From Nitrosopumilaceae archaeon (GTDB lineage: Archaea; Thermoproteota; Nitrososphaeria; Nitrososphaerales; Nitrosopumilaceae), in NCBI GenBank assembly GCA_965203465.1, contig CBDBCR010000003.1:64001-128000 (forward strand): a DNA stretch of 64,000 nt, read 5' to 3'. Within the stretch, counting starts at the first letter, position 1. The number at the start of each line of letters is the position of its first letter. The position numbers and the translations under genes are program-made. The notes under the pieces are model-generated. The model was not told where the DNA came from, did not search any database, and saw nothing but the letters and a program-made list of their open reading frames with translations. Below, one piece after another: positions 1 to 23,229 of the stretch.

Positions 1-3000
1 TTGCGCGTTGGCCGGCACGGACACCGGCTCGCTGAAGGCGACCTCTACGGTGGTAAGCGAGGTGGCCGCGGCCGACTCTATCCGGGGCGCGATGCCGTCG
101 TCCGCCGCGGCGGCGGCATAGGCGGCAAGGTTGTTGTCCGAGGTATCCTCGATGTTGCCGCCCGAGTACGCCACGGTGACAGACGGGCTCGTGGTGTCGG
201 CGATGTCCCTGTCCAGTGTGAGCGTGGCGCTCGTCCCGGAGACCGACTCGGATATGTCCGATATCGAATCTACCTCGGCGCTGTTTGCGTCCGCGCCCGA
301 TATGGCCCAGCCGAACGGCGCTGTGCCGGCGCCCGACAGCCTCACGCTCTCCGAAAATGCCACTTGTATCGTGCGGCGGTCGGCCACCGTCGCCGAGGCG
401 ACCGAGGGGTTCTGGCCGTCCTTCAAGTCCTGCGACAGCGCGGTCGAGGTTCCGAGCGCGTTGTTCGATCCGTCCTTTACCTGCGTGGAGTCTATCTGCA
501 CCGAGCCCTCCGCGCCGGTGCCCACCGGATTGGGGGCGGTGAACGAAACCACGTGCGTCGCGGTCGTCTGTCCGGATATCGACGATATGGTCGCCGTCTG
601 CCCGCCCACCGAGGCGCTGCCGTAGTGGGACTGCGAGGCAGTGACGGCCTCGCTGTACGTTATCGTGAACTGGCCCGGCCCGGTGACCTTTGCGGACTCT
701 ATTTCGGGCTTTATGCCGTCCGATACGGCCGTGCTCTGTTTGGCCTCCAGGGCGTTGGACGCGGGATCCGCTATGGCCCCCGAGCCCGAATTCGCGTCGC
801 CGGTCACGTCGCCCGACGAGGTCTTGTACCGCAGGACCACGCCGTCCGGCTTCGTGTCCTCCATGTCCGAGCTGAGCGTGAGCACCACGGAACGGCCGTT
901 CGAGACGGCGGTGCTCGAATCGACTGTGCGGCCGGCAGCGTCGGTCCCGGATACGGACCAGCCCTGCGCGGTCGTGTCCAATATCGAAAGGTTCTCGCTG
1001 AACGTGACCGTTATCTTGTCCAGTTCGGTCGCCTTTGCGGTGAACGTCGGCGCCTGCCCGTCCGTAAGAGTCTGCGTGACGTGGCCGGAGCCCAGGGCGT
1101 TGTTCGAGCCGTCCCTGATCGCCCCGAAATTGATTTGCACGGTTCCGGTCGCGTCGGTGCCCGTGTTGCTCCCGGCGAAGCTCAGGACGGCGGTGTCTGT
1201 GTTGGCGCCCGCAAAGCCCGACGCGAAGCGGCCCCCTCCCACGTTGATGTTGTTGTAGTGGGCCAGGTTGTGCGTCACCGTCTCGCTGTACACGATCGTT
1301 ATCTGGCGGGGTCCGGTGACCTTGGCGGACTCTATTTCGGGCTTTACGCCGTCCGAGACGTCGATGTTGGTGGCGGAGTCCAATTCGTTCGCGGTCCCCG
1401 CATCGTCCGCCACGTCGCCGGACGAGGAATCGTACGCCAGCTTTACGCCCTCCGGCTTCGTATCCGCGAGGTTGCCGTCGAGGGTCAGCACCAGCGTGTC
1501 CGAGGCGGTGGCGGATATGTCCGAGCGTCTGTCCACTACGCGCGAGTTCCAGTCGCCGCCGGATATCGACCAGCCGCCCGTCCCGGCGGTGCCGGTCGCC
1601 TTTACGTTTTCGCTGAACGTCACCGTTATCTCGTTCAGTTTGGTGGCCTTTGCCGACGTTATGGTCGGCTTTTGCCCGTCGGCCAGAGGCTGCGTCAGCG
1701 CGCCCGTCGTCCTCGTCATGGCGTTGCCCGACGCGTCGGCTATCTCTGCTTCGGCGATGTTCACCGAGCCGGTGGCCCCGGTGCCCGCCGGGTTCGTGAA
1801 CGTCAGGGTGTGCACCGCGGTACCGCTGCCCGAGACGTTCGATATCTGACGGAACTGGTTGTCCACGGTCGCCGGCGAATAGGCGGTCTGGCCGGCGGTG
1901 ACGGCCTCGCCGTACGTTATCGTTATCGTGGTCGGCCCCGTGATCTCGGCCTTTTCCACGGCCGGCGCGATGCCGTCGGCTACCGCTACGGAGGCGTCGG
2001 CCATGGCCTTGGAGTTGGCGTCGGTTATGGAAACGGCCGTTCCCGAAGCGGGGGTCGAGTCGTACGCGATGTCCAGATCCGGCCGGGTGTCCGGTAGGCG
2101 GCCGTCGAGCGTGAGCGTGAGCGTCTTTGTCGATACCGAGAGCGAGGACGCGCCCGACACGGACAGCGCGCTGCCGTTGACAGTCGCGTCGGTGCCGGAG
2201 ACCGACCAGGCCGCGGCGATCTGGGCCGGGGTGTTCGAGCTGGAAGCATCCCTGGTAAATACGACCACGATCGTCGACGGGCCCGTGGCGGCCGGGTTGA
2301 CGGCCGTCGCCGACAGTATGGACGGCCTCCTGTCGTCCGAGACGGCCGTCGCCGGCACGGCCGCCAAAGCCAGATTTGCGCCGTCCTGTATGGTACCGCC
2401 GGCCGAGTACGCAAGTTTGAGATCCGTTGACGGTGCCGGCACGTCGCCGTCCAGCGCGACGGTCATGGAGCCGGCAGCCGAGGTGAGCGACGAGACCGAC
2501 GATATCGCCAGGCCGGCCGCGTCGGCCCCGGACAGAGTCCAGTGCGACGCGTCGTTGTCCGGGCTGGACACGTCCTCGCTGAACGACACCGTGACGACTC
2601 GGTCGTCGGTCAGCGCGAACGAGGCCGTCGGGGCGATGCCGTCCGATACCGGCATGTTCTCGCGCGCCTCGAGGGCGTTGGACTCCGAGTCGGCTATGGC
2701 GCCCGAGCCCGAATCGGCGTCGCCCGGCACGTCCCCTGCGGAAGTCTTGTAGCGCAGCACCGCGTTGTCCGGGTTCGTGTCGGCCAGGCTCCCCGACAGG
2801 GTCAGCACCGTCGAGAGGCCGCTCGAGGTGGACGTGCTCGAGACGACCTGCAGGCTCGGAGCGTCGGTGCCCGATATCGACCAGCCCTGCGCGTTGGTGG
2901 CCGACGCGTCGACTAGCTCGCTGAATGTGACTTCTATCGTGGTAAGCGAGGTGGCTTTGGCGGATTCTATCGTAGGCCTTACCGCGTCCGAGACATCGAT

Positions 3001-6000
3001 GTCGGTGGCAGAAGCGAGCTCGTTCGCGGTCCCCGCCGCCTCGTCCGCCACGTCGCCTGCCGAGGAGTCGTAGGCCAGCTTTACGCCCTCCGGCTTTGTG
3101 TCCGTCAGGTTGCCGTCGAGGGTCAGCACAAGCGTGTCCGAGGCGGTCGACGAAATGCCAGCGCGCGTGTTCACGAGGCGCGAGTTGGAGTCGCCGCCCG
3201 ATATCGACCAGCCGGCGGCGCCGGACGTCCCGGTGGCCTTTACGGGCTCGCTGAACGTCACCTCTATCGTGGTAAGCGAGGTGGCCCTAGCCGATTCTAC
3301 GGTCGGCTTTACGCCGTCCGAGACGTCGATGTTCGAGGCCGATGCGAGCTCGTTTGCGGTCCCCGCCTCGTCTGCCACGTCGCCTGCCGCGGAGTCGTAG
3401 GCCAGCTTTACGCCCTCGGGCTTCGTATCCAAAAGGCCTCCGTTGAGGGTCAGCACCAGCGTGTCCGAGGCGGTGGCGGATATGTCCGAGCGTCTGTCCA
3501 CTACGCGCGAGTTCCAGTCGCCGCCGGATATCGACCAGCCGGCGGCGCCGGAGGTCCCGGTCGCCTTTACGGTCTCGCTGAACGTGACCTCTATCGTGGT
3601 AAGCGAGGTGGCCCTAGCCGATTCTACCGTCGGCCTTACCGCGTCCGAGACGTCGATGTTGGACGCGTCGTCCATCGAATTGGCCGCCGCTGCGGTGTCC
3701 TGAACGGTGCCGTCCGCCGCCACGTACGCCAGCTTTACGCCCTCCGGCTTTGTATCCGAGAGGCCGCCGTCGAGGGTCAGCACCAGCGTGTCCGATGCGG
3801 TCGACGAAATGCCAGAGCGCGTGTCCACCAGGCGCGAGTTGGAGTCGCCGCCCGATATCGACCATCCGGCGGCGCCGGCGGTCCCGGTCGCCTTTACGTC
3901 CTCGCTGAACGTGACCTCTATCGTGGTAAGCGAAGTCGCCCTAGCCGACGTTATGGTCGGCTTTTGCCCGTCCGCCAGATTCTGCGAGACGGTCGCCGAG
4001 CCCAGCGCGTTGCCCGACGCGTCGGCCACGGCAGCCGCGTCTATCGAGACGGAGCCGGTGGCGCCGGTGCCGACGGGGCTCGCCGTAGAGAACGTGACCG
4101 TGTGCCTGTCCGTCGAACCGTTGGCCAGGCCCGAGACGGTGGCGGCGGCTCCGTCCACGGTGGCCGACACGTAGTCGGCCTGCGCGGCCGTGACCGCCTC
4201 GCCGTACGCGACTTCTATCGTGGTCGGGCCGACTATGCTGGCCGACTCTATCTCGGGCGCGATGCCGTCGGCCACGTCTACAGAGGCGTCGGCCAGCACC
4301 CTAGAGTCCGTGCCCGATATCGTCACGGTCGTGCCCTGGCTCGGCGCGGCGTCGAACGAAAGCACGACGCTGTCCGGCTTTGTGTCCGGCAGGCCGGAGC
4401 TCAGATCCAGCCTGAGAGTGCTCGTCAGCGAGGACAGCGAGGACGCGCCCGATATGCTCAAAGCTGTGGGGCTGGCCGCGTCGCCTCCAGATATGGACCA
4501 GGCCGAGAGCAGATCCGACGGGGAGGCGGAGCTCGACACGCCCCTTGTGAACTCGACCACTATTGTGTCGCGGTTGACGGCGGTCGCAGACAGGATGGAC
4601 GGCCTCCTGTCGTCCTGCACGGCCGTCGCCGAAACTGCCGCCAAAGCCAGATTTGAGCCGTCCTGTATCGTGCCGGCAGCCGAGTACGCCAGTCTCAAGT
4701 CGGTGGACGGGACCGGCACGTTTCCGCTCAAAGATATAGTCATGGAGCCGGTCGACGAGGTGAGCGACGAGACCGACGATACGGCCAGGCCGGCCGCGTC
4801 GGCGCCCGAGATCGTCCAGTGCGACGCGTCGTTGTCCGAGCTGGAGACGGGCTCGCTGAACGATACGGTGATTGCGTCGTCGGCGGTCAGCCTGAACTCG
4901 GCGGTAGGGGCGATGCCGTCCGATACCGGTATGCCTTGGCGGGCGGCCAGGGCGTTGGAGTCCGGATCTTCGATGGCCCCCGAGCCCGAGCCCGGATCGC
5001 CGGCCGCGTCGGTGCCCGACGTCTCGTATCTTAGCAGCACGCCGTCCGGCTTCGTATCCGCCAAGGCTTTGTCGAGCGTCAGCACTATGGAGTCGGAACC
5101 GGACGAAGTGGTGCTCGAGACCACGACGTGCGAGCCCGCGTCGGTCCCCGATACGGACCAGCCCTGCGCGGCGGCATCCAGTATCGTGAGCGGCTCGCTG
5201 AAGGTGACCCTGATCTCGGTGAGCGAGACGGCTGCGGCCGACGATATCGTCGGCGCGACGCCGTCCGATACCGGTATGCTCTGGCGGGCCTCGAGGGCGT
5301 TGGAGGGGGGCGCGGCCGGGAACGTAAGGTACTGCGAGACGGAGCTGCGCTGGACGGTGCCGCCGGGGCCGGTAAAGGAGGTGGTCGAAGACGCCTTGTC
5401 GGCGATGTCGCCCGAGCCCGAGCCGGCATCGGCGCCCACGTCCGTACCCGATGTCTCGTAGCGCAGATGTATGTCCGGCTTGGTATCGGACAGCGGTCCC
5501 GAGAGCGTCAGCGTGACGGTGTTTCCGTCAAGAGAAGTGCTCGAATCGACGGTGCGCGAGGCCGAATCTGCCCCCGATATAGACCACCCCTTGCCGGCAA
5601 GATCCGATGTGGACACGTCCTCGTCGAACGTCACCTGTATGGTGTCGGCCGACGTGGCCTTGGCCGCCGTTATCGACGGGGCCACGCCGTCGTCTAGCGG
5701 CAGGAACTGCCTCGAGGAAGAAAGCGCGTTTCCGGCAAGATCCCGCACGCCGTTGGGGTCGTACTGCACGAAGCCGGACCACGACGGGTTCACGGTGCAG
5801 TCGCGCGACGTGAACGTGAACCTGTCGGCGGCCGTGAGAGTGGTGCCGCCGGCGCAGTTGGCCTGGCCGTTGAGTCGCGCGTCATGTATGGCGAAATTGC
5901 CGATGCGGACGTCCTCGCTGAACACGGAGACGGCCTTGTTGGGTGCCTCTGTCCTGGCATAGACGGTCGGCGCGATGCCGTCCGATACCGGTATGCCCGC

Positions 6001-9000
6001 GCGCGCCTCCATGGCGTTGGACGACGAATCCGCTACGGCGCCCGAGCCCGAGCCCGCATCGGAGCCGACATCGGCGCCCGAAGTCTCGTAGCGCAGCACC
6101 GCGTTGTCCGGGTTGGTGTCCGCGAGGTTCCCCGAGAGCGTCAACACGACCGAGTTGGAGCCGGACGCGGCGCTGCTCGCGTCCACCGTCAGGCCCGCCG
6201 CGTCGGTCCCCGATACGGACCACCCTTGCGCGCTCGTGTCCTGTACCGTGAGGCTTTCGCTGAACGTGACAGTTATGCTGTCGCGGGCCGTGGCCTTTGC
6301 CGTCACGGTGGGGGGCAGGCCGTCCGATATCGGTATGGAAGAGCGCGGCGCCAGCGCGTTGGACGCCAAGTCCGTTATGGCCCCCGAGCCCGAACCCACG
6401 TCGCTGCCCACGTCGCCGGTCGCGGTCTTGTAGCGCAGCACCGCGTTGTCCGGGTTGGTGTCCGCGAGGTTCCCCGAGAGCGTCAACACTATGGAGCTGT
6501 TGACGGACGTGGCCGTGCTGGTATCGACCGTGAGGCCGGCAGCGTCGGTGCCCGATATCGACCACCCTTGCGCGCTCGTGTCCAGTACAGTGAGGTCTTC
6601 GCTGAACGTGACCGTTATCTGGTTGGGTGCCGTGGCCTCGGCCGTCACGGTCGGGCTTATGCCGTCGCCGGCGGCCGTGGGCGGATAGTCAGCGAGCGGG
6701 CGGTTGGAATTGTCCCTGATGCCGTCGCCCGAGTACGCCACGGTGATGGCCGGTTTCGTGGTATCGGCGATGTCCCTGTCCAGGGTCAGCACGGCCGTGC
6801 TCGACCTGCTCTCGAGGCCCGCGTTGAGCATGGGGATGCCCGCGATCGACTCCACGGAGGCGCCGCCCGCGTCGGCGCCCGATATCGTCCAGCCGAACGG
6901 CGCGGCGCCGGACAGCTGCGCCGGGTCCGAGAACGTCACGGTTATCGTCCTGCGCGAGGTGACCGTCGCCGAGTCGACGGTGAGCAGGTCCGATACGGGT
7001 TTGTCGAGGGACTCGGCTATCTGGACGCCGGTCGTGTCCGAGACGGCGCCCGCGGATATGTCCAGCTCCGGGTCCGAGAGCGTCTCGAACGCGGCGCGCT
7101 GCTGGGCGACTAGCGTGAATTTCACAGAGAACCCGTCGGGCTGGCCCGCGTCCAGCCTGCTGGTCAGTTTTATGCCGCCCGACGACGAGCCGCTCTCCCG
7201 TATGTCGAATTTCGAGGCGTCGACCGACGATATCGCGACGGTCTCGCTGAACACCACGGTCAGCACCCCGTCGGAGCCGTGGTAGGAGGCCGACGCGAAG
7301 ACGGGCGCGATCGAATCCGCCGTAACGGCGACGTCGTGGCCGGCAGAGTCGGGGGCGAACGGGTTGCCGCTCGTGTCGTACACAGTGTTGGGCGCGAAGT
7401 ACAGGTTGGGATCGGACATGCCGATCACGGCCTGGCGCGAGGCCTCGTCCAGACTGAACCGCAGGGTGGACGTGTTCGACGAGACGGCCAGCATGGAATC
7501 GGTCATGGTAAGCTGGCCGGCCGCCGGCTGGCTCGTGCCGTCGCGCACGTGCACGCTCGTGGCAGAGAGCCTGCCCACGTCGATGTACTCGTTGAACGCT
7601 ACGGCCAGCCGGCCTGTCCCCGCGTCGAAGGTCACGTCGGCCGGCGCAGATATGATCGGCGCCGCGGAGTCGGCCGTGACGGCGATGTCGACGCCGGAGG
7701 CCGGCACGGAGAGGTCTCCGTCCGCGTCGCGGAACGCGCCCGCAGAGACGTACAGCCTGGGATCGGCCATGGCCAGGACGAGCTGCCTCCGGTCCTCGTC
7801 GAGCTCGAATGCCGGCGAGGCCGTGTCCGACGTCTCGGACGTGGAATCCTGATCCAGGACGAACGCGCCGGCAGACCCGGGCGTCGCCGAGGGGCCGTCG
7901 CGTACGCCTATGAGCGTCTCGTCGATGTCGCCGGGCGCCGACGCCTTGGCGGTCTTGCTGAGGGTTATCTCCAGATCGCCGAGACCCCCGTCCACCGTAG
8001 AAGACAGCACGTACAGCGTCAGGCCTACCGCGTTGTCGGCCGAGGCATCCGACGGGATGCCGGCCTTGTCCGAGACGGCTCCCGCGTCGATGTCAAGTTC
8101 CGGGACGGACAGGGCCTCAAAGTCGGCGCGCTGTTGCGCGGTAAGCGTGAACTTTACAGAGACGCCGTCGGGCTGGCCCGCGTCCAGCCTGCCGGCGAGA
8201 TTTATGCCGCCCGACGACGAGCCGCTCTCCCGTATGTCGAATTTCGAGGCGTCGACCGACGATATCGCGACTGTCTCGCTGAACACCGCGGTCAGCCTGC
8301 CGTCCGAGCCGTCGTACAGGACGGATTCGAACGCGGGCGCGATCGAATCCGCCGTCACGGCGACGTCGTGGCCGGCAGAGTCGGGGGCGAACGGGTTGCC
8401 GCTCGTGTCGTACACAGTGTTGGGCGCGAAGTACAGGTTGGGATCGGACATCCCGATCACGGCCTGGCGCGATTCCTCGTCCAGACTGAACCGCAGGGTG
8501 GACGTGTTCGACGAGACGGCCAGCATGGAATCGGTCATGGTAAGCTGGCCGGTCGCCGGCTGGCTCGTGCCGTCGCGCACGTGCACGCTCGTGGCAGAGA
8601 GCCTGCCCACGTCGATGTACTCGTTGAACGCTACGGCCAGCCGGCCTGTCCCCGCGTCGAAGGTCACGTCGGCCGGCGCAGATATGATCGGCGCCGCGGA
8701 GTCGGCCGTGACGGCGATGTCGACGCCGGAGGCCGGCACGGAGAGGTCGCCGTCCGCGTCGCGGAACGCGCCCGCAGAGACGTACAGCCTGGGATCGGCC
8801 ATGGCCAGGACGAGCTGCCTCCGGTCCTCGTCGAGCTCGAATGCCGGCGAGGCCGTGTCCGACGTCTCGGACGTGGAATCCTGATCCAGTACGAACGCGC
8901 CCGGCGCCGATGGCGAGGCGGACGGGCCGTCGCGTACGCCTATGAGCGTCTCGTCGATGTCGCCGGGCGCCGAGATCTTTGCCGCCCTGTTGAGGTTTAT

Positions 9001-12000
9001 CGTGAGGCCTCCAGACTCCCCGTCGAACGAGGCGGAGTCTACCCCGAGCAGAGCGGCGACGCGGCTGTCCTGGGAAGCCGGTATCGCGTTGGCCGGCGAG
9101 GCCGTGTCCGAGACGGCGCCCGCGTCGATGTCCAGCTCTGGCACCGACAGGGCCAGGACGGTCGCCAGCTGCTGCGCGGTAAGCGTGAACGCGACCGAAG
9201 CCCCGTCGGACTGGCCTGCGTCGAGCCGACCTGTAAGCGCGGTGCCGCCCGACGAGGAGCCGCTCTCCCGGATGTGGAACTTTGAGGCGTCCGCCGAAGA
9301 CACGTCGACGTCCTCGCTGAACTCCAGCGCAAGCTCGCCGCTGCTCTCGTTGAGCACGGCCGACAGCAGCGCGGGCGGCAGGAGGTCCGAGACGGACACG
9401 TGCGGCGAGACGGTCGATGCGAGCGGCTTGTCGGTGCCGTCCTTTATGTCGCCCGGGCTCTGCACGTACTGCAGCCGCAGCGAGGGCGAGGTGTCCGGCA
9501 GGTCGCCGGAGAGGCCCAGGCTTACCGTGTCGGTCGACGACGATATTCCGAGGTACCTGCTCACGGTTATGCCGGCAGAGTCGGCGCCGTGCAGCTTCCA
9601 CGTGCCGGCCGCGCCCGTCGCGGTGCCGGTGACGTCCTCGCTGAACTCGACCCGGATTTCGTCCGCCGAGACGGCGGCGGCCGACGATATGGCAGGCGCC
9701 AGGTTCTGCGAGACCGAAACGCTCGCGCCGGCAAGGCCGTTGTCGGACGCGTCGGCTATGTCCCCCGCCGAGCCCGAGTACGACAGGGTCACCTCGCCGA
9801 TGGGCTCCGCGAACGCCGACGAGGCGGTGATTTCTATGGAGCGCGAGTCGGAGAACGCGTCGTAGACCGTTATCGTGCGGCCGCCCGCGCCTGCCCCCGA
9901 GAGCGACCACGTGTCGTCCGGATCCGTCGCGGTGCCCGAGACTTCTTCGGAGAACTCGACGGTTATCTTGTTGGATTCGTGCGAGACCGCCGAGGCGATG
10001 GCGGGCGCTATGCCGTCCGAGACGGGGGCCGAGGCCGCCGCCATGGCGTTGGAGGACGGGTCGGATACGGCGCCCGAGCCCGAGCCCGGATCGCCGCCCT
10101 CGTCTCCCGCCGATGTCTTGTACCGGAGCGAGGCCTCGGGCCTCGTGCCCTCCAGATTCCCTGAGAGGGTCAGCACGATAGAGCCGCCGTCCGACGCGGC
10201 GGTGCTCGCGTCCACCGTGAGGCCGGCAGCGTCGGTGCCGGATATAGACCAGCCCTGCGCGCTCGTGTCCAGTATGGTGAGGTCTTCGCTGAACGTGACC
10301 GTTATCTTGTCGGGGGCCGTGGCCCTGGCCGCAAAGGTCGGGGATATGCCGTCGGACGGGGCGTCAGAGTACGCGGCAAGGGCGTTGTCGTATATGTCCT
10401 CGATGTTGCCGCCGCTGTAGGCCACCGCAATGTCGGGGGACGTGTCCGCCAAGTTGCCGCTCAGCAAAAGCCTGGCCGTAGTTCCCGACTGGGTGCTGGA
10501 AATGTCCGTTATCGAGGATACGGACACCGAGGCGGCGTCGGTTCCGGATATCGTCCAGCCTGTCGGCGCGCCCGTGTCGGACATGCGGACCGCTTCCGAA
10601 AATCCGACCGTGATCTCGTCCAGCTTTGTGGCCTCGGCGGAGACGATGCGGGGCGCGATGCCGTCCGATACGGGTATGGAAGCCCGGCTGGCCAGAGGGC
10701 TGGAGACAGCCGCGTCGGGGAACGTGAGGTACTGCGCGACGGAGCTGCGCTGCTTGGGGCGGTCCTGCGCTTCGGGGAACGCGGCTCGGGAGGAGGACTT
10801 GTCTGCAATGTCGCCCGAGCCCGAGCCCGTATCGGCGCCGATGTCGGCGCCGGACGTCTCGTAGCGCAGCTGGATGTCGGGCGTGGTGTCCGGCAGCGGG
10901 CCCGAGAGCGTCAGGGTCACGGTGCGCCCGTCCAGGGACGTGCTGGAGTCGACTGTGCGCGAGGCAGAATCGGTCCCCGATATCGACCACCCCTTGCCCG
11001 CCGTGTCCGAAGTGGACACGTCCTCGTCGAACGTTACCTGTACGGTAGTCAGGGACGTTGCCGTGACCCCCGTTATCGACGGGGCCACGCCGTCGTCGAT
11101 GGGCATGTACACCCAAGCGCCCGGCCTGTTTCCCGCAAGATCGCTGACGTTGCGCCCGTCGTACAAAAACGAGCCCGACGACGAAGAGCTTATGTTGCAT
11201 CTGGACGTGAACGTGACAGAGTTCTGGCCCGCAAGCGCGGAGGTGGAGCCGGTTGCGCAGCCGGGGCTGAGGCGGAAAGTCTGTATGGTAAAGGAGCCGC
11301 TGACGCTGACGGCTTCGCTGAACCTGTACGCGACCTTGTTGGGGAGGACCGTCGTCGCAGAGATCGTCGGCGCTATGCCGTCCGATACGGGTATGCCTGC
11401 GCGCGCCGCCATCGCGTTGGATGCCGGATCCGCTATGGCCCCCGAGCCCGAGCCCGCGTCGGTGCCGATGTCCGTACCCGAAGTCTCGTAGCGCAATACG
11501 GCGTTGTCGGGGTTGGTGTCCGCCAAGTTCCCCGAGAGCGTCAGTACTACGGAGTTGGAGCCGGACGCGGCGCTGCTCGCGTCCACCGTCAGGCCCGCCG
11601 CGTCGGTGCCCGACACGGACCAGCCCTGCGCGGTGGTGTCCTGTATCGTGAGCGGCTCGCTGAACGTGACGGCTATCCTGTTTAGGGCCGTGGCCCGCGC
11701 CGTGACGGTCGGCTTTATGCCGTCCGCGACGTCGCCCGACAGGTCTTCCAGTTCCTTGCCGCCGTCGCTGGCGATCGTCACGGCCGAGCCGTCGTACGCC
11801 AGGATCACGCCGTCGGGCTTTGTGTCCGGCAGGTCCGAGCTGAGCGTGATCGTCAGGGAACTGGTGAGCACCTGCAGCGACGTCATGCTTTGTACGCTCA
11901 AGCTCGCGGGGCTGGCCGCGTCGCCCCCCGAGACGCTCCAGGCGGCGAGCAGGTCGGCCGGAGAATCCGGGCTCTTTACGGGGCTCGTGAACTTTACGGC

Positions 12001-15000
12001 TATCTTGTCGAGCTCGGTGGCCCGTATCGAGGCGACGGCCGGGCGCCTCTCCTCCGATACGTCCGCCGACGAGGCCGGCAGGGCGTTGCCGGACGCGTCC
12101 GAGACGGCCGAGCCTGAATAGCCGACGCTCAGGCCCGATATGTCCTGGGGCATGTCGCGGTCCAGCCCTATAGCCATCGAGTCGGTCAGCGACGATAGCG
12201 ACGTGACCGACAGCGAGCGGGGTACCGAGAACGAGCCGTCGGCGTGCGAGAACGCCCAGTGCCCGGCCAGGTTGCCCGAGCCGCTCACCTGCTCGCCAAA
12301 GTCTATGATCACCGTCCGGTCTTCCGTGATCCTCGCCTCGAACGAGGGGGCCAAGCCGTCCGATATCGGTATGGAAGAGCGCGCCGCTAGGGCGTTGGAC
12401 GCCAAGTCCGCTATGGCCCCAGAGCCCGAGCCCGTGTCGCCGGGCACGTCTCCTGCGGAAGTCTTGTAGCGCAGCACCGCGTTGTCCGGGTCCGTATCCG
12501 CAAGGTTCCCCGAGAGCGTCAATACTATGGAGCTGTTTGCGGACGTGGCCGTGCTGGTATCGACCGCCAGGCCGTCGGCGTCGGTGCCCGATATAGACCA
12601 CCCTTGCGCGCTCGTGTCCTGCACCGTGAGCGGTTCGCTGAACGTCACCGTTATCCGGTTCAGTGCCGTGGCCTCGGCCGTGACGGTCGGGGCTATGCCG
12701 TCCGAGACGTCGATGTTGGTGGCAGAAGCGAGCTCGTTTGCGGTGCCCGCCTCGTCTGCCACGTCGCCTGCCGAGGAGTCGTAGGCCAGCTTTACGCCGT
12801 CCGGCTTCGTATCCAAGAGGCCGCCGTCGAGGGTCAGCACAAGCGTCGTCGAGCTGCCGGCAGAGATGTCCGAGCGCGTGTCCACCACGCGCGAATTCCA
12901 GTCGCCGCCCGATATCGACCAGCCGCCCGTCCCGGCGGTGCCGGTGGCCGTGACCGCCTCGCTGAAGGTGACGGTTATCTCGTCGAGGGCGGTGGCCCTC
13001 GCCGATTCTATCGTAGGCTTTACGCCGTCCGAGACGTCGATGTCCGTGGCCGAGGCGAGCTCGTTGGCGCTCGACGCGGTGTCTTGCACGTCGCCCGTCG
13101 AGGAATCGTACGCCAGCTTTACGCCCTCCGGCTTGGTGTCTAGCAGACCGCCGTTCAGTCTCAACACCAGCGTGTCCGAGGCGGTGGCCGATATGTCCGA
13201 GCGCGTGTCCACCACGCGCGAGTTGGAGTCGCCGCCCGATATCGACCAGCCTCCCGTCCCGGCGGTGCCGGTGGCCGTGACCGCCTCGCTGAAGGTGATG
13301 GTTATCTCGTTGAGGGCGGTGGCCACAACCGATTCTATCGTCGGCTTTACGCCGTCCGAGACGTCGATGTCCGTGGCCGAGGCGAGCTCGTTGGCGCTCG
13401 ACGCGGTGTCTTGCACGTCGCCCGTCGAGGAATCGTACGCCAGCTTTACGCCCTCCGGCTTGGTGTCTAGCAGACCGCCGTTCAGTCTCAACACCAGCGT
13501 GTCCGAGGCGGTGGCCGATATGTCCGAGCGCGTGTCCACCACGCGCGAGTTGGAGTCGCCGCCCGATATCGACCAGCCTCCCGTCCCGGCGGTGCCGGTG
13601 GCCTTTACGTCCTCACTGAACGTGACTGTTATCTCGTTGATGGCGGTGGCCTCTGCCGATATTATGGTCGGCTTTTGCCCGTCTGCCAGATTCTGCGAGA
13701 CGGTCGCCGTCCCCAGGGCGTTGCCCGACGCGTCGGTCACGGCCGCCCCGTCTATCGACATGGTGCCGGTAGCGCCGGTGCCGACAGGGCTCGCCGGCGA
13801 AAACTGGATCGTGTGCCTGTCCGTCGAACCGTTGGCCAGGCCCGAGACGGTGGCGGCGGCTCCGTCCACGGTGGCCGACAGGTAGTCGGCCTGCGCGGCC
13901 GTGACCTCCTCGCCGTACGCGACTTCTATCGTGGTCGGGCCGACTATGCGGGCCGACTCTACTTCCGGAGCTATGCCGTCCGATACGTCGACCGAGGCGT
14001 CGGCCAGCACCCGGGATTCGGCGTCCGATATGGACACGGTGGTGCCCTGGCTCGGCGTGGCGTCGAACGAAAGCACGACGCCGTCCGGCTTTGTGTCCGG
14101 CAGGCCGGAGCTGAGCGTGAACGTGAGCGTGCTGGTGCGGACGGCAAGCGACGAGACGGTTTGTACGCTCAAGCTCGCCGGGCTGGCCGCGTCGCCGCCC
14201 GATATGGACCAGGCCGAGAGGATGTCCGAGGCGCTGTCCGTGCTCGTGACGCCCCTCGTCAACTCGACAACGACGGTGTCGCGGTCGACGGCCGTGGCCG
14301 ACAGGATCGACGGCCTCCGGTCGTCCTGCACGGCCGTCGCCGGCGCGGCCGCCAGGACGAGGTTGGCGCCGTCGCTTATCGTGCCGCCGGCCGAGTACGC
14401 CAGTTTCAGATCCGTCGACGGGACGGGCACGTTTCCGTTCAGCGCGACGGTCATGGAGCCGGACGACGAGGCCAAGGACGATACGGACGATACGGCCAGG
14501 CCGGCCGCGTCGGCCCCGGACAGAGTCCAGTGCGACGCGGCGTTGTCCGGGCTGGACACGCCCTCGCTGAACGTCACCGTTATGGCGTTGTCGGCGGTCA
14601 GCCTGAACTCGGCGGTCGGCGGCAGGCCGTCGGACACCGGTATGCCCTGGCGCGCGGCAAGCGCGTTGGACGAAAGGTCGGTTATCGCGCCCGAGCCCGA
14701 ATTGGGGTCGCTCCCCACGTCGCCGCCCTCCGTCTTGTAGCGCAGCACCGCGTTGTCCGGGTCGGTGTCGGCGAGGTTGCCCGATAGCGTCAGCACTATC
14801 GAACTGTTTACGGACGTGGCCGTGCTCGCATCGACGGTGAGGCCGTCGGCGTCTGTGCCGGATATGGACCACCCCTGAGCGGTCGTGTCCGATATGGTCA
14901 GCGGCTCGCTGAACGTGACCGTTATCTTGTTCAGAGCCGTGGCCTCGGCGGTGACCGTCGGCGCTATGCCGTCCGATATGGGTATGTTTTGGCGCGCCTC

Positions 15001-18000
15001 CATCAGGTTGAGCGACGGGTCGGCTATGGAGCCCCCGCCCGAGCCCGGATCGCCGGCCAAGTCGATGCTCTCGGTCCTGTACCGGAGCACGGCGTTGTCC
15101 GGGTTGGTGTCCTCTAGGTTCCCCGAGAGGGTCAGCACGATAGAGTCCGAGTCTGCCGCCTGCGTGCTCGCATCGACGGTCAGGCCGTCCGCGTCGGTGC
15201 CCGATATAGACCAGCCCCGCGCGCTCTGATCCGTTATCGTGAGGTCTTCGCTGAACGTCACCGTTATCTGGTTGGGTGCCGTGGCCTCGGCCGTGACGGT
15301 GGGCTTTATGCCGTCGCCGGCGGCCGTCGCCGCGTACGTCGCAAGGTCGTTGCCCGACGTGTCCTCGATGTTGCCGCCCGAGTAGGCCACCGTTATGGAC
15401 GGCCGGGTGGTGTCGGCGATGTCCCCGTCCAGGTTCAGCGTGGCGCCCGTGCCGGATGCGGATTCGGTTATGCCCGATATCGAATCTACCGCAACGCCGC
15501 CCGCGTCGGTCCCCGATACGGCCCAGCCGAACGGGGCGGTGCCGGCCTCTGAGAGCCCCACCTCCTCGGAAAAGGCCACCTCGATCGTGCGGCGGTCGGT
15601 CACCTTTGTCGACTGAACCTCGGGGGCCTGCCCGTCGCCCAGAGTCCGCTGCAGCGCGCCGGCGCCCAGCGCGTTGCCGGACGCGTCGAGCACCCCCGCG
15701 GCGCCGATCGACAAAGAGCCCGTAGCGCCGGTGCCGGCCTCGTGGCCCGTGAACGAGAGCACGTGCGAGGCGCTCGTCTCGCCCGATATCGCGGACACCG
15801 CGCGCGGGGCCCCCTCCACCAGGACGGAGCCGTAGTCGGACAGCGCCGCGGTCACGGCCTCGCCGTACGAGACGGTTATCTGGTTGGGGCCGGTGACCCG
15901 CGAGGACGAGACCTGCGGCGCGAGGCCGTCCGATACCGGTATGGAAGAGCGCGCGGCAAGCGCGTTGGACGAGAGGTCGGTTATCGCGCCCGAGCCCGAA
16001 TTGGGGTCGCTGCCCACGTCGCCGCCCTCCGTCTTGTAGCGCAGCACCGCGTTGTCCGGGTCGGTGTCGGCGAGGTTGCCGGAGAGCGTCAGCACTATCG
16101 AACTGTTTACGGACGTGGCCGTGCTCGCATCGACGGTCAGGCCGTCCGCGTCGGTGCCGGATATGGACCACCCCTGAGCGGTCGTGTCCGATATGGTGAG
16201 GTCTTCGCTGAACGTGACCGTTATCTTGTTCAGAGCCGTGGCCTCGGCCGTCACGATCGGCGCGATGCCGTCGCCGGCCGCCGTGGCCGCGTAGGCCGCC
16301 AGATCGATGCCCGCCGTGTCCTCGATGTTGCCCCCAGAGTAGGCCACCGTTATGGACGGCCGGGTGGTGTCGGCGATGTCCCCGTCCAAGTTCAGCGTGG
16401 CGCCCGTGCCGGTTGCGGATTCCGTTATGTTGGATATGGAACTGACCTCGGCGCCGTCCGCGTCGGTACCCGATATCGTCCAGCCGAACGGCGCGGCGCC
16501 CGGACCCGACAGCCGGACCGGCTCGGAGAACAGCACCCAGACCGAGTTGCGCGAGGTCGCCGTGGCGGACAGCACGGCCGGGGCCGCGCCGTCCGATACG
16601 GGTATGTTTTGGCGCGCGGCCAGCGCGTTGGAGGCCGAATCGGCTATGGCCCCAGAGCCCGAGCCGGAGTCCGATCCGACGTCGGCCCCCGACGTCTCGT
16701 ACCTGAGCAGCACGCCGTCCGGCTTTGTGTCCGCCATGTTACCAGAGAGGGTCAGCACTATGGAACGGGCGCTGGCCGCGGCGGTGCTCGCGTCCACCGT
16801 CAGGCCGGAGGCGTCCGTGCCGGATACGGACCACCCTTGCGCGGTGGTGTCCGAGACGGTCAGCGGCTCGCTGAAGGTGACCCGTATCTTGTCCTGGGCC
16901 GTGGCCACGGCCGACGATATCGTCGGCGCCAGGTTCTCGGTGACGGCCACCGAAGAGCCTGCAAGGTCGATGTCGGCTGCGTCCTTTACGTCGCCCGCAG
17001 AGGCGTCGTACGACAGCGCCACCTCGCCTATCGGCACCGAAAAGGCCGGCGAGACGGTCAGCACGACCGAGCCGGAATCCGAGAGAGCCGGATAGCCCGT
17101 GATCGCGCGGCTGCCGGCGCCGGCCCCCGAGAGCGTCCAGGTGGAGCCGGGCGCCGTGGCCGTGCCAGATACGGGCTCGGAGAACGTGACTGTTATCTTG
17201 TCGGTCCCGTTGGACTCTGCGAGCAGTATAGCGGGGGCGATGCCGTCCGAGACGGAGGCGGACTGGCTCTGCATGGGGTTGTCCAGGGCGGTCGGATACG
17301 TCAGGGCCTGCGCTAGGCCGCCGCGATCGTTGTACTCGCCAAAGAATCTATCAACGTGCGTGAACAAAGACGCCCTGTCCCGGATGTCGCCGCCGCCCGA
17401 GCCGGCGTCGGCCCCCACATCGATCCCCGACGTCTCGTAGCGAATCTGCAGGCCGTCCGGCTTCGTGTCGGGCAGCGGGCCCGAGAGCCCCAGTGTGACC
17501 CGGTTTCCGTCGAGCCGCGTGCTGGAATCCACGGTGCGCGAGGCCGAATCCGTCCCGGATATCGACCACCCCTTGCCGTCAGTGTCTGAGGTGGTCACGC
17601 GCTCGTCAAAAGTCACCTGCACCGTGGTAAGGGACGTGGCCCTGACGCCGGATATCGACGGCGCTATGCCGTCGTCTATGGGCATGTTGCGTCGCGATCG
17701 TTCAGAAAACATCGTGTGTCCTGCCGGATCAGTTGCCCAATTCACGGGGACGCGGTGCGTTCCTGTCCACGAAGAGCCAAAAGAGCTGCAAGTCGATGTA
17801 ACCTCGATCGTGTCAGAGGTTTGGCCAAGGCCCGGTGTACGGCCGCTGGCTGCACCGCAACCTCCGGGAAAATCGATTATTGAATCGTGTGCAGAACGCG
17901 TCACAGGCTCGCTGAACTTGAACTCGATTATGTTCGGCGCTTTCGTCTTTGCTGAAAGCGTGGGCCTGATGCCGTCCTGTATTGGTATATTCTCGCGCGC

Positions 18001-21000
18001 GGCCAGCGCGTTGGAGTCCGAGTCCGCGATGGCGCCCGAGCCCGAGTCCGCGTCGCCGCCCACGTCCCCCGCCAAAACCTTGTAGCGCAGCACCGCGTTG
18101 TCCGGGTTGGTGTCGGCCAGGTTGCCCGAAAGCGTCAGCGTGACCCGGTTTCCGTTGAGCGCCGAGCTCCGGTCAACCGTGAGGCCGTCGGCGTCGGCGC
18201 CCGATACGGACCACCCTTGCGCGTTTGTCCCCGGCGCAGAGACGCGCTCGCTGAACGTGACCGTTATCGTGTTCAGGGAGGTGGCCCGCGCCGAAGAGAC
18301 GGTCGGCGCCAGATTCTGCGACACCGGGGCCGAGCCTGAAAGCGCCAGGCCGGCAGGATCGGCTATGTCGCCGGCAGAGTACGAGAGGGCCACCTGGCCG
18401 ATGGGCGAAGGGAACGCCGACGAGACTGTCAGGACTGTCTGGTCGGACCGCGAGGGCGCCTCGTAGGCTGTGACGGTGCGGCCGCCGGCGCCGGCCCCCG
18501 AAAGCGTCCAAGTGGAGCCGGGCGCCGTGGCGGTCCCCGAGACCGGCTCCGAAAAGGTCACGGTTATCTGGTCTGCTGCGCGCGAGACGGCCGACGATAC
18601 GGACGGCGCGATGCGGTCCGAGACGCGCGCGGACTGGTCGGCCATGGCCATGCCGTTGGCGTCGGCCAGCCTCACCGGCTGAAAGCCGGAAGGCGTGGAA
18701 TCGTAGTGAACCACGACGCCGTCCGGCGCCGTGTCCGGAAGGTCGGAGCTGAGCGTGAGGGTGAGCGTGCTGGTAAGGACCGTCAGCGACGACAGCCGGA
18801 GCACCGAATTGCCGGCCGCGTCGCCGCCCGAGACGCTCCACGCGCCGAGCAGGTCGGCCGGCGGGCTGGAGCTCTGTGCGGGCTGCGAGAGGGACACCAC
18901 GACGGTGTCCGGGGCAACGGCCGCTGCCGACGATATCTCCGGGGCCCGGTAGTCCGAGGCGGGCGCCGAGGCGGCGGCCAAGCGGTTGCCGGACGCGTCC
19001 GAGACGGTGCCGACCCCCAGATAGACTACGCTCAGGCCGGAGGCGTCCAGCGGAAGGGCCATGTTGAGATCGACGGTCATGGAGCCGGTCAGAGAGGCCA
19101 GCGACGAGGCCGACAGGGGGCCGAGCGCCTGGAACTGCCCGCCGGCGTGCGAAAACTCCCAGTGCAGGAAAGAGTTGTCCGAGCTTTGCACCGGCTCGCT
19201 GAACACGACGGTCACCTGCCTGTCTGCGGTGATCCTGGCCTCGAAGGCCGGCGCTACGCCGTCCGATACGGGTATGCTTTGGCGCGCGGCCAGCGCGTTG
19301 GACGACGAGTCCGTCACGGCCCCCGAGCCCGAGCCCGCGTCGGTACCCACGTCGGTCCCCGACGTCTCGTACCTGAGCAGCACGCCGTCGGGCCCCGTGT
19401 CCGCCAGGTCCCCCGAGAGCGTCAAGACCACCGTCGTCGAGCCCGACGAGATGTCAGAGCTGGCCGCGACGTGGCGCGAGGCCGAATCGGTCCCCGATAT
19501 GGACCATCCCAGCCCTGTTTGATCGGCAGTCTTTACGGTCTCGCTGAACGTCACCGTTATCCTGTCCAGGGCGGTGGCCTCGGCCGACAGTATCGCAGGC
19601 GCGGCCCCGTCGGTGCCGACGACCACGGCCACGCCGCCGGTCTCTGCCGCTATGGCGTTGGCGGTCGGCGATATCACGTCCGAGATGGCGCCGGCGGCCA
19701 CGTACAGGTGCGGGCCGGTCATGGCCAGAACCGCCTGGCGGTTGGCCTCTGAGAGCCGGAACTTTAGCGTCAGCCCGTCGGACTGGCCCGCCTGCACCTC
19801 GGCTGCGGACAGCGAGACCTCGCCGGCCGAGCCGTCGGCTGCCCCCGAGCCGGGCCGTATCTCGAATCCGGCGCCGTCCGCGCCGGACACGTCGACGGTC
19901 TCGTCGAACGTGACCGTGAGGACGCCGGTGCCCCCGTCCAGGGAGGCAGATTCCACCTCGGGCTTTACGGCGTCCGGCGTGTCGGCTATCTCGGTGGCCG
20001 AAGAGGCGGGGGCGTTGTTGTTCGAAGAATCCTTCGTGACGCCGGCCTCGAGGCGCACGTGCGGCTCGGCGTACCCGATGACCGACTGCCTGAGGGCCTC
20101 GGTCAGTTTTATCCTGATCTGCGCGTCGGCCAGCACGACGGCGGTGACCGCCGAGCCGCTCAGCGCGGTGCCGCCGGCGCCGTCGCCGTCGCGCACGAAG
20201 ATCTTGGCCAGATCAACGGACGCGCCGTCGCCCACGTGCTCGTCGAAGTTGAGGTTGAGCACGCCGGTCCCCTCGTCGACGGACGCCGAGACCAGTACCG
20301 GGCCCGTGGTGTCGGCCGCGGGCCTGGGCGCGGACTTGGTCACGGTCGCCAGCGCCGCGTCGGTGCCCGACGCCTTGAAGGCGTTGGCGGCTATCACCAC
20401 TTCCGAGTCGGCGGTTATATCCTTCATGGATTCCTTTTGCGCCGGGCTCAGCCCTATGTCCTTCATGGATTCCTTTTGCGCCGGGCTCAGCCCTATGGTG
20501 GCCACCGCGCCGCTGATCGAAAGCGAGGACGTCGAGTCGAGCGTCGTCCCTCCGGATTTGCCTTCCTCCCGCACGGTTATCTTCCCGAGCGCGTCGGCGC
20601 TGCTGGTGTGCGCCTCGATGTTCTGGTCGAACGTGAGGGTCAGCTTGCCCGCGTGCCGGCTGCCGCCCTGCTCGAAGTTGTTCAGGTCGATTGCAGCCGA
20701 GTCGAGCACGGGCAGCAGGACCAGCCGGGCCGAGGCGTCGGTGTTTGTGTTGAACGCGGCGTCGGCCACGGCGCCCTCTTCGAGGTGGATGTACGGGTCC
20801 GCGTAGCTGTTTACATCGTCTAGCGCGCTATTGTCGAGCACTATCGTGACGGTGCTAAGGTTGTCGGCCGAGGTGAGTTGCGAGCTGGTCAACATCGTGC
20901 CGCCGCCCTTGGTGGACCCGTCGGTGATCGATATCTTGTCCTGGCGCACGGGGTGGCTGATTCGTTCGCTGAACGTGATTACGAGGGTGCCCGACTCGGT

Positions 21001-21814: not shown

Positions 21815-22123
21815 CTAACGGAGGCGTCGAGACATTTCCTGGTAGGCGTCTTTGCGGTGACGGATCGCGTGGACTAGAACGCGATCTCCTTCGACGCGGT
21901 ACACTATGCGGAAGCAGAACTCGTCTATGCGCGCGGAGCGGAATCCCCTCAAGTCTGTGATCATCTCCTTGCCGATTTCAGGATCCCTGCCAATCTCCTC
22001 TATCTGCGAATTGACGGCGGCCAGCAGGCCAGGCTGCGACCTTTTGAGTTTTTTGTAGTCTTTTTTGCATTGGTTGGTAAACTCGACTCGCTGAGCTACG
22101 CTTTTACTTTTATCTTTTCCCAC
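21815..22123 (-). CDS. Type II toxin, RelE/ParE family
   Basis: 102 aa basic protein: VEFTNQCKKDYKKL...GKEMITDLRGFRSARIDEFCFRIVYRVEGDRVLVHAIRHRKDAY; overlaps the upstream gene. Confidence 0.85.
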   Translation of the reverse strand: MGKDKSKSVAQRVEFTNQCKKDYKKLKRSQPGLLAAVNSQIEEIGRDPEIGKEMITDLRGFRSARIDEFCFRIVYRVEGDRVLVHAIRHRKDAYQEMSRRLR

Positions 22124-22431
22124 GGTATAGTTTCTCCCCCTTTCATGCCGGCGCGCAACTGCCTCATCAGTTCTGGATCCTGCATTATCTCGATCGTGTC
22201 CATAAGGCCGGGGGGGCGCGTAGGCCTGACGGTTCTTTGATTCTCAAAGACGTCTACAGGGACTCTTTCGATGTCTGCTACCGGGCGCGAAGAGTGCGCC
22301 GCGTCTGCAAGCATGAAGAACATCGCCGCGTCTTCACAGCCGTCCATGTTCTCCATCTTCGAACAATCCGTTGCGCGTTTGCGCCTGACCGCTTCCTGCC
22401 GAAACACAATACCGTCGGCCACCGACGTCAT
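22096..22431 (-). CDS. Putative antitoxin (111 aa)
   Basis: ATG 22431 overlaps the upstream TGA (ATGA). The C-terminus DTIEIMQDPELMRQLRAGMKGGETIPWEKIK is typical of antitoxins preceding RelE. Confidence 0.7.
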   Translation of the reverse strand: MTSVADGIVFRQEAVRRKRATDCSKMENMDGCEDAAMFFMLADAAHSSRPVADIERVPVDVFENQRTVRPTRPPGLMDTIEIMQDPELMRQLRAGMKGGETIPWEKIKVKA

Positions 22432-22919: not shown

Positions 22920-23229
22920 CCGGCAATGCCTTTCCGCCACGGCTTTTAATCCTTGGCATCGCCCGGTTTTGTTCGGCAATTCCCCGATCCGCGCCTGAGC
23001 GGAGCCGTTTTTTGGCCGATCCGGCCACGGCGCAGGCACGAAAATGCGAATTGCCGAACAAAGCCCGTCGCCCTAGTTGCCCAACCCCATGTAGCGGGGG
23101 CCGCCTTGCGTCATCCGTACCTGATTCTCGGGCAGAAAGCGCGCCCCGGCGCCGGCAACGGCCCTGCATCCGGGGTTAGGCAACCAACTACATCGGCCCC
23201 CGCCGCCCGGCGGGCCGAGTGCGCCGCCG

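Follow-up and report, generated by a model that had tools for sequence, protein, structure and literature searches.

The giant gene and its host

The stretch of DNA considered here (the window; 64,000 nucleotides, forward-strand positions 64,001 to 128,000 of contig CBDBCR010000003.1 in the GenBank assembly GCA_965203465.1 of a Nitrosopumilaceae archaeon) begins within a giant open reading frame (ORF) on the minus strand (21171..1), which encodes 7,057 stop-free residues inside the window and is open at its 3' end. In the genome, this ORF continues below window position 1 to a full length of 9,057 aa and comprises a signal peptide, ~76 tandem immunoglobulin (Ig)-like repeats of ~100-115 aa each, and, beyond the window, a C-terminal domain of ~500 aa with cysteines of its own. 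Embedded among the repeats are three copies (cassettes 1 to 3) of a two-domain module, in which a divergent Ig domain with a pair of cysteines is followed by an Ig domain with a ~30-aa insertion; a fourth copy (cassette 4) resides in a paralogous gene. The anatomy, divergence, and possible role of these cassettes are the subject of the following sections.

The signal-peptide-like segment (21058..21171, minus strand, approximately aa 1-38) displays in translation a basic n-region, a hydrophobic core with a lone cysteine (Cys29), and subsequently AGAAGQS. Segmentation with a hidden Markov model (HMM) built from the giant protein's own repeats and clustering yielded ~20 sequence types, arranged in the order ABCDEFGHEIJHEKELKEEMGLNNNEFGEOJKEHPQRSQRSQKEEOJEMGLNNNEMGLNTELKEMGKKNHPUVWXY, where I and O denote the Cys domain and J the insert-bearing domain. 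Three 2,000-aa pieces of the protein match the Pfam family Big_5 (PF13205) with E values of 1.8e-36, 4.9e-35, and 1.6e-29 (125.4, 120.9, and 103.2 bits, all exceeding the cut-off of 23.6 bits), and the neighbors of the repeats in a similarity atlas are Big_5/SWM_repeat clusters at 0.91.

The host genome (2.26 Mb, 65% GC) encodes an archaeal amoA (383.3 bits; no match in any of 14 control genomes), and the host is therefore an ammonia-oxidizing archaeon. It also gave a full-length match to an archaeal small-subunit (SSU) model (1441.8 bits), a model that matches bacterial controls as well. Near-identical DNA is present in at least 14 metagenome runs from four studies, which are labeled as sponge metagenome, marine metagenome, or two coded organisms.

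Anatomy and distribution of the module

The order E-type repeat, Cys domain, insert-bearing domain is found in all three cassettes of the giant ORF, each of them encoded on the minus strand. In cassette 1, the E-type repeat D09 (17977..18315, aa 953-1065) precedes the Cys domain D10 (17674..17976, aa 1066-1166), with cysteines at aa 1105 and 1128 (codons 17857-17859 and 17788-17790), and the insert-bearing domain D11 (17248..17673, aa 1167-1308), with the insert at aa 1265-1293 (window 17293-17379). Cassette 2 accordingly comprises the Cys domain D30 (11095..11382, aa 3264-3359; cysteines at aa 3305 and 3325, codons 11257-11259 and 11197-11199) and the insert-bearing domain D31 (10666..11094, aa 3360-3502; insert aa 3457-3485, window 10717-10803) downstream of the E-type repeat D29 (11383..11724, aa 3150-3263). 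In cassette 3, the E-type repeat D45 (5983..6324, aa 4950-5063) is followed by the Cys domain D46 (5692..5982, aa 5064-5160; cysteines at aa 5106 and 5125, codons 5854-5856 and 5797-5799) and the insert-bearing domain D47 (5266..5691, aa 5161-5302; insert aa 5258-5285, window 5317-5400).

A first-pass annotation of the window had described a three-part unit at these three places, and translation, repeat HMM segmentation, and alignment all bear it out: the motifs DDG(I/V)APSI, GKGWSISG, and DSASRTVDSST as well as three insert strings were each recovered at the sites it gave, exactly three times. Its observation that the other repeats lack cysteine likewise holds, as the 7,057 aa contain seven cysteines, namely Cys29 of the signal peptide and the three pairs, each located in a ~97-aa divergent Ig domain.

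The insert-bearing domain corresponds to an E-type repeat (51-57% identity in the alignment) with a ~30-aa insertion that sits exactly between D-x-x-S and N-A-L of the E-type motif and thus splits the Big_5-like motif D-x-x-(G/S)-N-x-L. The first half of the insert is paralog-specific, and the second half follows a conserved pattern, (Q/D)R(S/G)x(V/L)xQxLT(F/Y)P; together with the framework of the domain, this second half is conserved across all four paralogs. When scored singly against Big_5, two insert-bearing domains reach 24.7 and 25.5 bits (above the cut-off) and one 16.5 bits (below it). None of the three Cys domains individually matches any Pfam family at E<=0.01; since they nevertheless score 56.5-60.4 bits against the in-house repeat HMM, their sequences mark them as divergent relatives of the giant protein's repeats that are not scored as PF13205 members. 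N-glycosylation was rejected as a distinguishing feature of the cassettes: of the 21 sequons in the whole protein, two lie in the Cys domain of cassette 2 and none in the other five cassette domains.

According to motif scans, the host genome contains exactly four modules, three in the giant ORF and one in a 7,440-aa paralog on contig C1, and the motifs QxLT[FY]P and GKGWS[IV]SG co-occur solely in these four in-frame cassettes. A search of 1.84 billion representative proteins returned 102 matches at E<=0.001, with the full module only in P0002 (7,565 aa, three cassettes), an ortholog of the giant ORF with ~91% identity over collinear parts, and in P0003 (one cassette), an ortholog of the C1 paralog; both are single-member ENA clusters. 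A second protein search added P0104 (6,856 aa, two cassettes) and P0106 (7,439 aa), another ortholog of the C1 paralog. The order of E-type, Cys, and insert-bearing domain is kept in all four copies of the genome and in the orthologs. Queries with the module against 40 relatives gave weak generic matches only, in three of 24 same-family genomes, and neither a Cys-type copy in 150 same-family genomes nor related loci in the genome-contig and metagenome-contig collections were found. Judged by these searches, the two-domain module is lineage-specific. Our literature search found no description of it, with the limit that the supplementary tables of papers on sponge archaea, which lay outside the search, might list the gene.

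The first-pass annotation had further assumed a periodic spacing of ~2,000 aa. The first cysteines of successive cassettes are in fact 2,200 and 1,801 aa apart in the giant ORF, as compared to 1,444 and 2,509 aa in P0002, so that the cassettes are recurrent rather than periodic.

Paired cysteines and predicted fold

Both cysteines are kept in all eight copies compared (three in the giant ORF, one in the paralog, three in P0002, and one in P0003), with 19, 20, 21, 22, 23, or 24 residues as Cys-Cys spacing. That the cysteines always occur in pairs in a protein otherwise free of cysteine fits a disulfide-stapled loop, and such a loop is probably present within each Cys domain. This lends support to the earlier proposal of a disulfide-stabilized site as far as the conserved pair is concerned, the bond itself being putative.

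Two-domain models were computed with AlphaFold2 (AF2) from shallow, non-independent alignments of 50 domain pairs taken from the host genome alone, and reached a mean predicted local distance difference test score (pLDDT) of 82.7 and a predicted template modeling score (pTM) of 0.76 for cassette 2 and of 81.9 and 0.75, respectively, for cassette 1. Both models consist of two beta-sandwiches. The insert-bearing domain superposes on the Ig domain of the S-layer protein SbsC (2ra1_A) with a Z score of 11.1 and a root-mean-square deviation (rmsd) of 2.3 over 96 aligned residues, and a second structural comparison gave a Z score of 11.8 and an rmsd of 2.1 over 94 residues. The modeled Cys domain returned only generic Ig/MG structural matches (Z ~7), Foldseek matches of the model were tandem FN3/Ig proteins, and a profile of the four cassettes had no match among PDB sequences at E<=1.

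In the strand order assigned by DSSP to both models, the first cysteine lies a few residues past strand C in the C-C' loop and the second three residues past strand E in the E-F loop, so that the putative bond would tie these two loops together; the insert is placed between strands F and G of the insert-bearing domain. The standard topology of Ig/FN3 sandwiches with seven strands puts the F-G loop at the N-terminal pole and the loops C-C' and E-F at the opposite, C-terminal one. When this topology is applied to the DSSP order, the Cys loop and the insert come to lie at the same inter-domain junction, across which they should face each other. The composite site suggested by the first-pass annotation, consisting of a variable domain and an adjacent loop, therefore agrees with the models in the shared junction, with a direct contact between the two as a model-based conjecture.

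Divergence and base composition of the copies

The Cys-domain copies form the most diverged repeat class of the giant protein (35-47% identity); the medians of the other 13 repeat types with at least two copies range from 51 to 98%, and those of the 11 older types from 51 to 76%. Across the eight copies mentioned above, orthologous Cys domains are 80-100% identical as compared to 32-49% for paralogous ones, and the framework residues DGIxPT, FSExV, D..G, and P.D are common to the four aligned paralogous Cys domains.

The excess resides in non-synonymous divergence (dN). For the Cys domains D30/D46, dN is 0.434 at a synonymous divergence (dS) of 0.641, and for the insert-bearing domains D31/D47 the values are 0.183 and 0.628. 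The corresponding figures are 0.093 and 0.446 for the E repeats D29/D45 and 0.087 and 0.278 for the E repeats D26/D44. Inside one duplicated block, the dN of the Cys domain is hence 2.4-5x that of its neighbors.

The divergent repeat had also been described as visibly more AT-rich, which applies strongly to cassette 1 and not to cassettes 2 and 3. Over the 76 domains, the mean GC content is 0.678 (standard deviation 0.029) and the mean GC content at third codon positions (GC3) 0.864 (standard deviation 0.046). The Cys domain of cassette 1 departs from this with a GC of 0.561 and a GC3 of 0.574. The values are 0.622 and 0.823 for cassette 2, where the deficit sits in codon position 1 and thus reflects amino-acid composition, and 0.653 and 0.856 for cassette 3; the copy in cassette 4 has a GC3 of 0.898. 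The patch in cassette 1 is the sole strong low-GC3 stretch in the 9,057-aa gene, with a minimum of 0.45 in a 40-codon window, and the few remaining windows below 0.70 all bottom at 0.675. It stops at the borders of the Cys domain, the giant genes of the genome running at ~0.87, and it represents the lowest internal 80-codon GC3 window among the giant ORFs of this protein family in the genome.

A foreign donor for this domain was found neither in the 150 same-family genomes nor among proteins of 178-2,000 aa (word-indexed search). Its best matches in the 150 genomes are Cys-free repeats with 33-38% identity at loci of 68-75% GC, and a search for fragments of cassette 1 in proteins of 427-2,000 aa gave one unrelated partial match only.

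Variation between orthologs and in populations

The giant ORF and P0002 share 53 reciprocal domain pairs with a median identity of 0.93. The Cys domains of cassettes 1, 2, and 3 are 0.80, 0.87, and 0.93 identical to their counterparts and rank 6th, 8th, and 25th lowest, respectively, and the insert-bearing domains reach 0.88, 0.93, and 0.91. The ortholog divergence of the Cys domains is exceeded by that of the Q-R-S region (0.62-0.77 identity to P0002).

On a finer scale, the segment between the two cysteines of cassette 1 shows 11 mismatches in 24 positions (binomial p 1.8e-6 against a background of 8.7%), that of cassette 2 five in 21 (p 0.03) in addition to a 2-aa indel, and that of cassette 3 one in 20 (not significant); cassette 3 as a whole is no less conserved than the repeats that flank it. 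At least 11 mismatches are attained in four regions only among 5,934 windows of 24 aa, namely the signal peptide, the Cys loop of cassette 1, and two spots in ordinary repeats. The three inserts are 93%, 97%, and 79% identical to their orthologs and, when pooled, differ from P0002 at nine of 86 positions (p 0.33). Cassette 4 and its counterpart in P0003 are 100% identical, within a region of 95.6% identity overall, and the Cys domain of cassette 4 is 88.8% identical to that of P0106 on a background of 83.3%. By these counts, the inserts are paralog-specific and not hypervariable.

The population comparison was made on contigs and draws on 32 listed contig pieces out of 1,218 and 40 listed differences out of 621, with cassettes 2 and 3 lying outside it. 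Run X9 is identical to the window and may be the sample from which it came. The other three runs compared, X1, X3, and X11, all carry a net +3-nt insertion at 17830-17836, i.e., between the Cys codons of cassette 1, and this one-codon insertion coincides with the site of a 1-aa indel relative to P0002. Among the listed contigs, X11 diverges by 9.8% (16778-17698) and 12.7% (17669-18106) around the cassette as compared to 0.1-1.3% over 18997-21171; this run also holds a second strain that is identical to the window. In X1, 2.3% and 0.9% over cassette 1 compare with 0-6.1% elsewhere, and X3 is uniformly divergent (2.8-5.7%, with 4.3% over cassette 1).

The view of the cassettes as hypervariable can thus be retained in part: the Cys loop of cassette 1, with its mismatches and its indel in three runs, and the paralogous Cys domains speak for it, and the inserts, the loop of cassette 3, and the invariance of cassette 4 against it. 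A concentration of allelic variation in the cassettes is hinted at by the codon indel and by the X11 tract but not seen in X3, which is uniform, or in X1, where the cassette stays within the range found elsewhere.

Candidate diversification mechanisms

No reverse transcriptase was detected in the genome (96.86% complete) with PF00078, for which a control search matched three of 14 control genomes. Whole-genome blastn with the three Cys domains and the three inserts recovered, apart from the queries themselves, only weak paralog matches (70-82% over at most 84 nt), and the genome therefore has neither a template repeat nor a silent donor. A diversity-generating retroelement is thereby ruled out for the host genome, which has neither reverse transcriptase nor template repeat, and so are silent donor cassettes, all four cassettes being in an expressed frame.

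The differences between related genomes are mostly rearrangements of whole multi-domain blocks. The eight-domain block D19-D26 (EMGLNNNE; window 12361-14973, aa 2067-2937), which resembles the later block D48-D55, is without collinear counterpart in P0002 and amounts to a copy-number difference of ~870 aa. P0104 and P0002 have in common a near-identical block of ~680 aa that includes cassette 2 and its flanks, the remainder of P0104 being arranged differently. Within the giant ORF, the adjacent R-S type blocks D37-D38 and D40-D41 (window 7318-8928, aa 4082-4618) share 95%/98% protein identity at a dS of 0.14/0.03, which by these values is a very recent internal duplication, and D36-D42 is the part most diverged from P0002 (0.55-0.77). 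The idea of the first-pass annotation that the cassettes are exchanged by recombination between conserved flanks is not supported: what differs is mostly whole blocks, and neither a reverse transcriptase nor donor copies were found.

Related giant ORFs and neighboring genes

The C-terminal domain of the giant ORF has ~498 aa and lies immediately below position 1 of the window (G000:C3:58001-59494). It terminates 16 giant ORFs of the genome (1,804-9,068 aa), which together amount to ~58,500 aa or ~7.8% of the 2.26 Mb. Its copies are 39-86% identical, have a fixed pattern of six cysteines, and belong to no Pfam family save for a weak match to DUF6481. The domain also occurs in 12 of 24 same-family genomes searched and in one case (G016) ends an open frame of 25,697 aa.

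Close pairs of cysteines are encountered elsewhere in these proteins. The first Ig domain (aa 73-148) of the 7,440-aa paralog (G000:C1:648397-670716) harbors such a pair at aa 112/121 inside its F-G loop, which coincides with the sole low-GC3 run of that gene (0.60), and a 6,135-aa paralog has a similar pair at 115/130. Cys pairs in loop insertions are, by their sequences, a recurrent feature of this protein family, sometimes together with low GC3.

Two consecutive gene pairs on the minus strand (window 23835-33755) each encode a large protein with a periplasmic-binding/ANF-receptor domain (877 and 864 aa) and a right-handed beta-helix protein (822 and 659 aa, the latter also with a PKD-like domain), which suggests that two genes next to the giant gene were duplicated together in tandem. 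A DDE transposase domain (PF01609, E 2.4e-6) is encoded by an ORF of 265 aa on the minus strand (34006-34803), where the local GC falls to 0.58-0.60. The 1-kb windows 22001-23000, 27001-28000, and 39001-40000 have a GC of 0.53-0.56 against a background of 65-68%. Further along, tRNA-Phe (GAA) is encoded at 49015-49089 on the plus strand and tRNA-Asn (GTT) at 50100-50177 on the minus strand.

Possible role of the cassettes

The explanation that we favor, with moderate confidence, is that the module was duplicated along with its block and then diverged, and that it now serves as a lineage-specific adhesion or recognition module in a giant secreted surface protein. The cassettes would be copies of one specialized two-domain module, preceded by an E-type repeat, within a secreted Ig-repeat surface protein, and would have arisen by segmental duplication of multi-domain blocks, as in the growth of the rest of the gene. 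They would then have diverged at non-synonymous sites faster than the stalk repeats, each copy being retained in orthologs with both of its cysteines. The junction between Cys domain and insert-bearing domain is a candidate ligand- or host-recognition site, and the three copies may represent adhesion sites of differing specificity along a flexible stalk rather than programmed hypervariable sites. Recognition or adhesion appears to be the likeliest predicted function because a conserved scaffold is combined with a variable-length stapled loop and a paralog-specific insert half. Ig-like and S-layer proteins of sponge ammonia-oxidizing archaea have already been proposed as adhesion or recognition factors (PMC6790972, PMC7848895), and the recognition site suggested here agrees with these general proposals.

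Several points weigh against this explanation. With dN/dS below 1 in all pairs (at most 0.68), the rates are explained equally well by relaxed constraint and by diversifying selection. Simple duplication and divergence leave the GC3 anomaly of cassette 1 (0.574 vs 0.864) unaccounted for, and the divergent tract in X11 hints at allelic replacement around this cassette, which the favored explanation does not require. Moreover, model confidence is low in the insert (pLDDT 48-59) and moderate in the Cys-Cys loop (65-68), the AF2 models depend on a shallow, non-independent alignment of 50 domain pairs from one genome, and we infer the disulfide, the loop-insert contact, and ligand binding from sequences and models.

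Among the alternatives, a purely mechanical role is unlikely. The stapled and insert-bearing domains would then provide the stalk with rigid joints, stops, or clamps that resist proteases, without binding a ligand; titin-like chains, which contain special Ig domains and unique insertions, offer a parallel. Such a role would be in keeping with the retention of both cysteines in 8/8 copies while the intervening sequence drifts, with the conservation of the insert-bearing framework and second insert half in four paralogs, and with the recurrence of close Cys pairs in loops of otherwise Cys-free Ig repeats elsewhere in the protein family. The two-domain pTM of 0.75-0.76 also suggests a defined inter-domain geometry, a value not shown to be special, since an ordinary-repeat control pair lay outside the comparison. 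A clamp, however, would need neither a variable, paralog-specific first insert half nor a dN in the Cys domain of 2.4-5x that of its neighbors. Another alternative is relaxed constraint alone, with the Cys domain as a decaying or neutral repeat subtype that escapes the gene conversion homogenizing the common types. The dN/dS below 1 in all pairs, the lower dS of the E pairs (0.28-0.45 vs 0.63-0.64 for Cys and insert-bearing domains in the same block, as conversion among abundant types would give), and the lack of individual Pfam matches (0/3 Cys domains) all accord with it. We nonetheless consider it the least probable of the readings discussed here: a decaying domain would hardly have kept both cysteines in 8/8 copies, framework residues shared across four paralogs despite 32-49% identity, or the three-domain order in 4/4 genome copies and the orthologs, and, loops aside, the AF2 models are of high confidence.

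At the other extreme, the cassettes could be hypervariable composite binding sites that are diversified within populations by recombinational exchange between conserved flanks, comparable to antigenic variation or self/non-self systems. For cassette 1, this improbable scenario finds some support in the Cys loop (11/24 against P0002, p 1.8e-6, one of four hot spots), in the net +3-nt between the Cys codons of X1, X3, and X11, in the divergence of the listed X11 contigs (9.8%/12.7% over 16778-18106 vs 0.1-1.3% over 18997-21171), and in a GC3 of 0.574 that would fit import from another background. The loop of cassette 2 (5/21 and a 2-aa indel against P0002) and the near-identical ~680-aa cassette 2 block in P0104 and P0002 despite rearrangement otherwise point in the same direction. 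Against it, the genome has no reverse transcriptase, template repeat, or silent donor, and no lower-GC donor was found in 150 same-family genomes. The inserts (9/86, p 0.33) and the cassette 3 loop (1/20) are not elevated, cassette 4 is 100% identical to P0003, and its Cys domain is 88.8% identical to that of P0106 on an 83.3% background. The Cys domains are only 6th, 8th, and 25th lowest of 53, with the Q-R-S region more diverged, X3 is uniform (4.3% at the cassette), and X1 shows 2.3%/0.9% vs 0-6.1% elsewhere. Recombination-exchanged hypervariability fails for cassettes 3 and 4 as well as for the inserts; for cassette 1, it is favored by the GC3 anomaly, by the hot spot in the Cys loop, and by the divergent tract in X11. 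A related and similarly doubtful proposition is a composite recognition site at the Ig-Ig junction, formed by the variable-length stapled loop and the F-G insert and diversified in symbiont populations by allelic import, of which the low GC3 of cassette 1 and the X11 tract with its 10-13% divergence would be traces. If true, several independently evolving host- or phage-facing specificities would be arrayed on one stalk, and the archaeon would possess a counterpart to combinatorial receptor sites made of two loops.

Sponge-associated ammonia-oxidizing archaea are believed to rely on an enlarged repertoire of surface proteins for life inside their hosts. The modules offer short (~240 aa), lineage-specific candidate recognition sites, three in a 9,057-aa chain and one in a paralog, which are small enough to express, solve, and assay. 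The gene also illustrates how such giant genes change between related genomes, namely by gain, loss, and rearrangement of blocks together with small-scale indels in loops, no machinery dedicated to diversification being involved. In cassette 1, the anomaly in codon usage is confined to a domain of ~100 aa and represents a clean case for studying single-domain import within a gene.

Comparison with known systems

The closest relatives by fold are the Big_5/SbsA-SbsC S-layer Ig domains, which the giant protein resembles in the Big_5 scores of its long pieces and in the superposition of the insert-bearing domain on the SbsC Ig domain. It differs from them in its Cys domains without Pfam match, in the 30-aa insert that splits the family motif, and in the ~76 copies within one archaeal chain. 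In overall layout, bacterial giant adhesins of the Bap/SiiE/LapA type and ice-binding adhesins come to mind, which combine a long Ig-like extender with ligand-binding modules. Shared features are a secreted chain of thousands of residues, near-identical Ig extenders, and few specialized modules; here, however, the modules occur at three separate places in the stalk instead of being grouped at one end, and the host is an archaeon.

With the targets of diversity-generating retroelements, the cassettes share a variable loop on a conserved scaffold in an extracellular binding fold, without the accompanying reverse transcriptase and template repeat. Silent-cassette gene conversion of the pilE/pilS and vlsE type exchanges cassettes between conserved flanks; in contrast, the 2.26-Mb genome examined here has no donor copies, and all four cassettes are in an expressed frame. 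A further point of reference is VARTIG of the Thermococcales, a large Ig-domain protein with a hypervariable C-terminal Ig domain and variable downstream genes, for which recombination-driven variability was proposed; that paper reports no comparable variability outside the Thermococcales (PMC8416519). Compared with VARTIG as described there, the C-terminal domain of the giant ORF is conserved (39-86% among 16 paralogs), the variable domains are internal, and the variability is modest, so that the protein does not group with VARTIG with respect to its C-terminal domain and the position of its variable domains.

Two giant proteins from other metagenome assemblies (P0109 and P0112) carry, among repeats free of cysteine, a DUF5011-like domain with a Cys pair, which recurs regularly (every 469 aa in P0109) and with nearly identical sequence. 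An interspersed Cys-bearing Ig subtype in a giant repeat protein is hence not unique to the giant ORF. The details differ: in the DUF5011/HYR-type domains of P0109 and P0112, the second cysteine lies three residues before D-D-A-G-N with a spacing of 31, as compared to ~19 residues before D-L-A-G-N and a spacing of 19-24 in the giant ORF, whose three Cys domains do not match this family at E<=1. An insert-bearing partner with an F-G insert has no counterpart in the domains of P0109 and P0112 and sets the present module apart. Giant Ig-repeat surface proteins with interspersed Cys-bearing Ig subtypes are thus known already, and Ig-like domains have been listed among the candidate host-interaction factors of sponge ammonia-oxidizing archaea (PMC6790972, PMC7848895).

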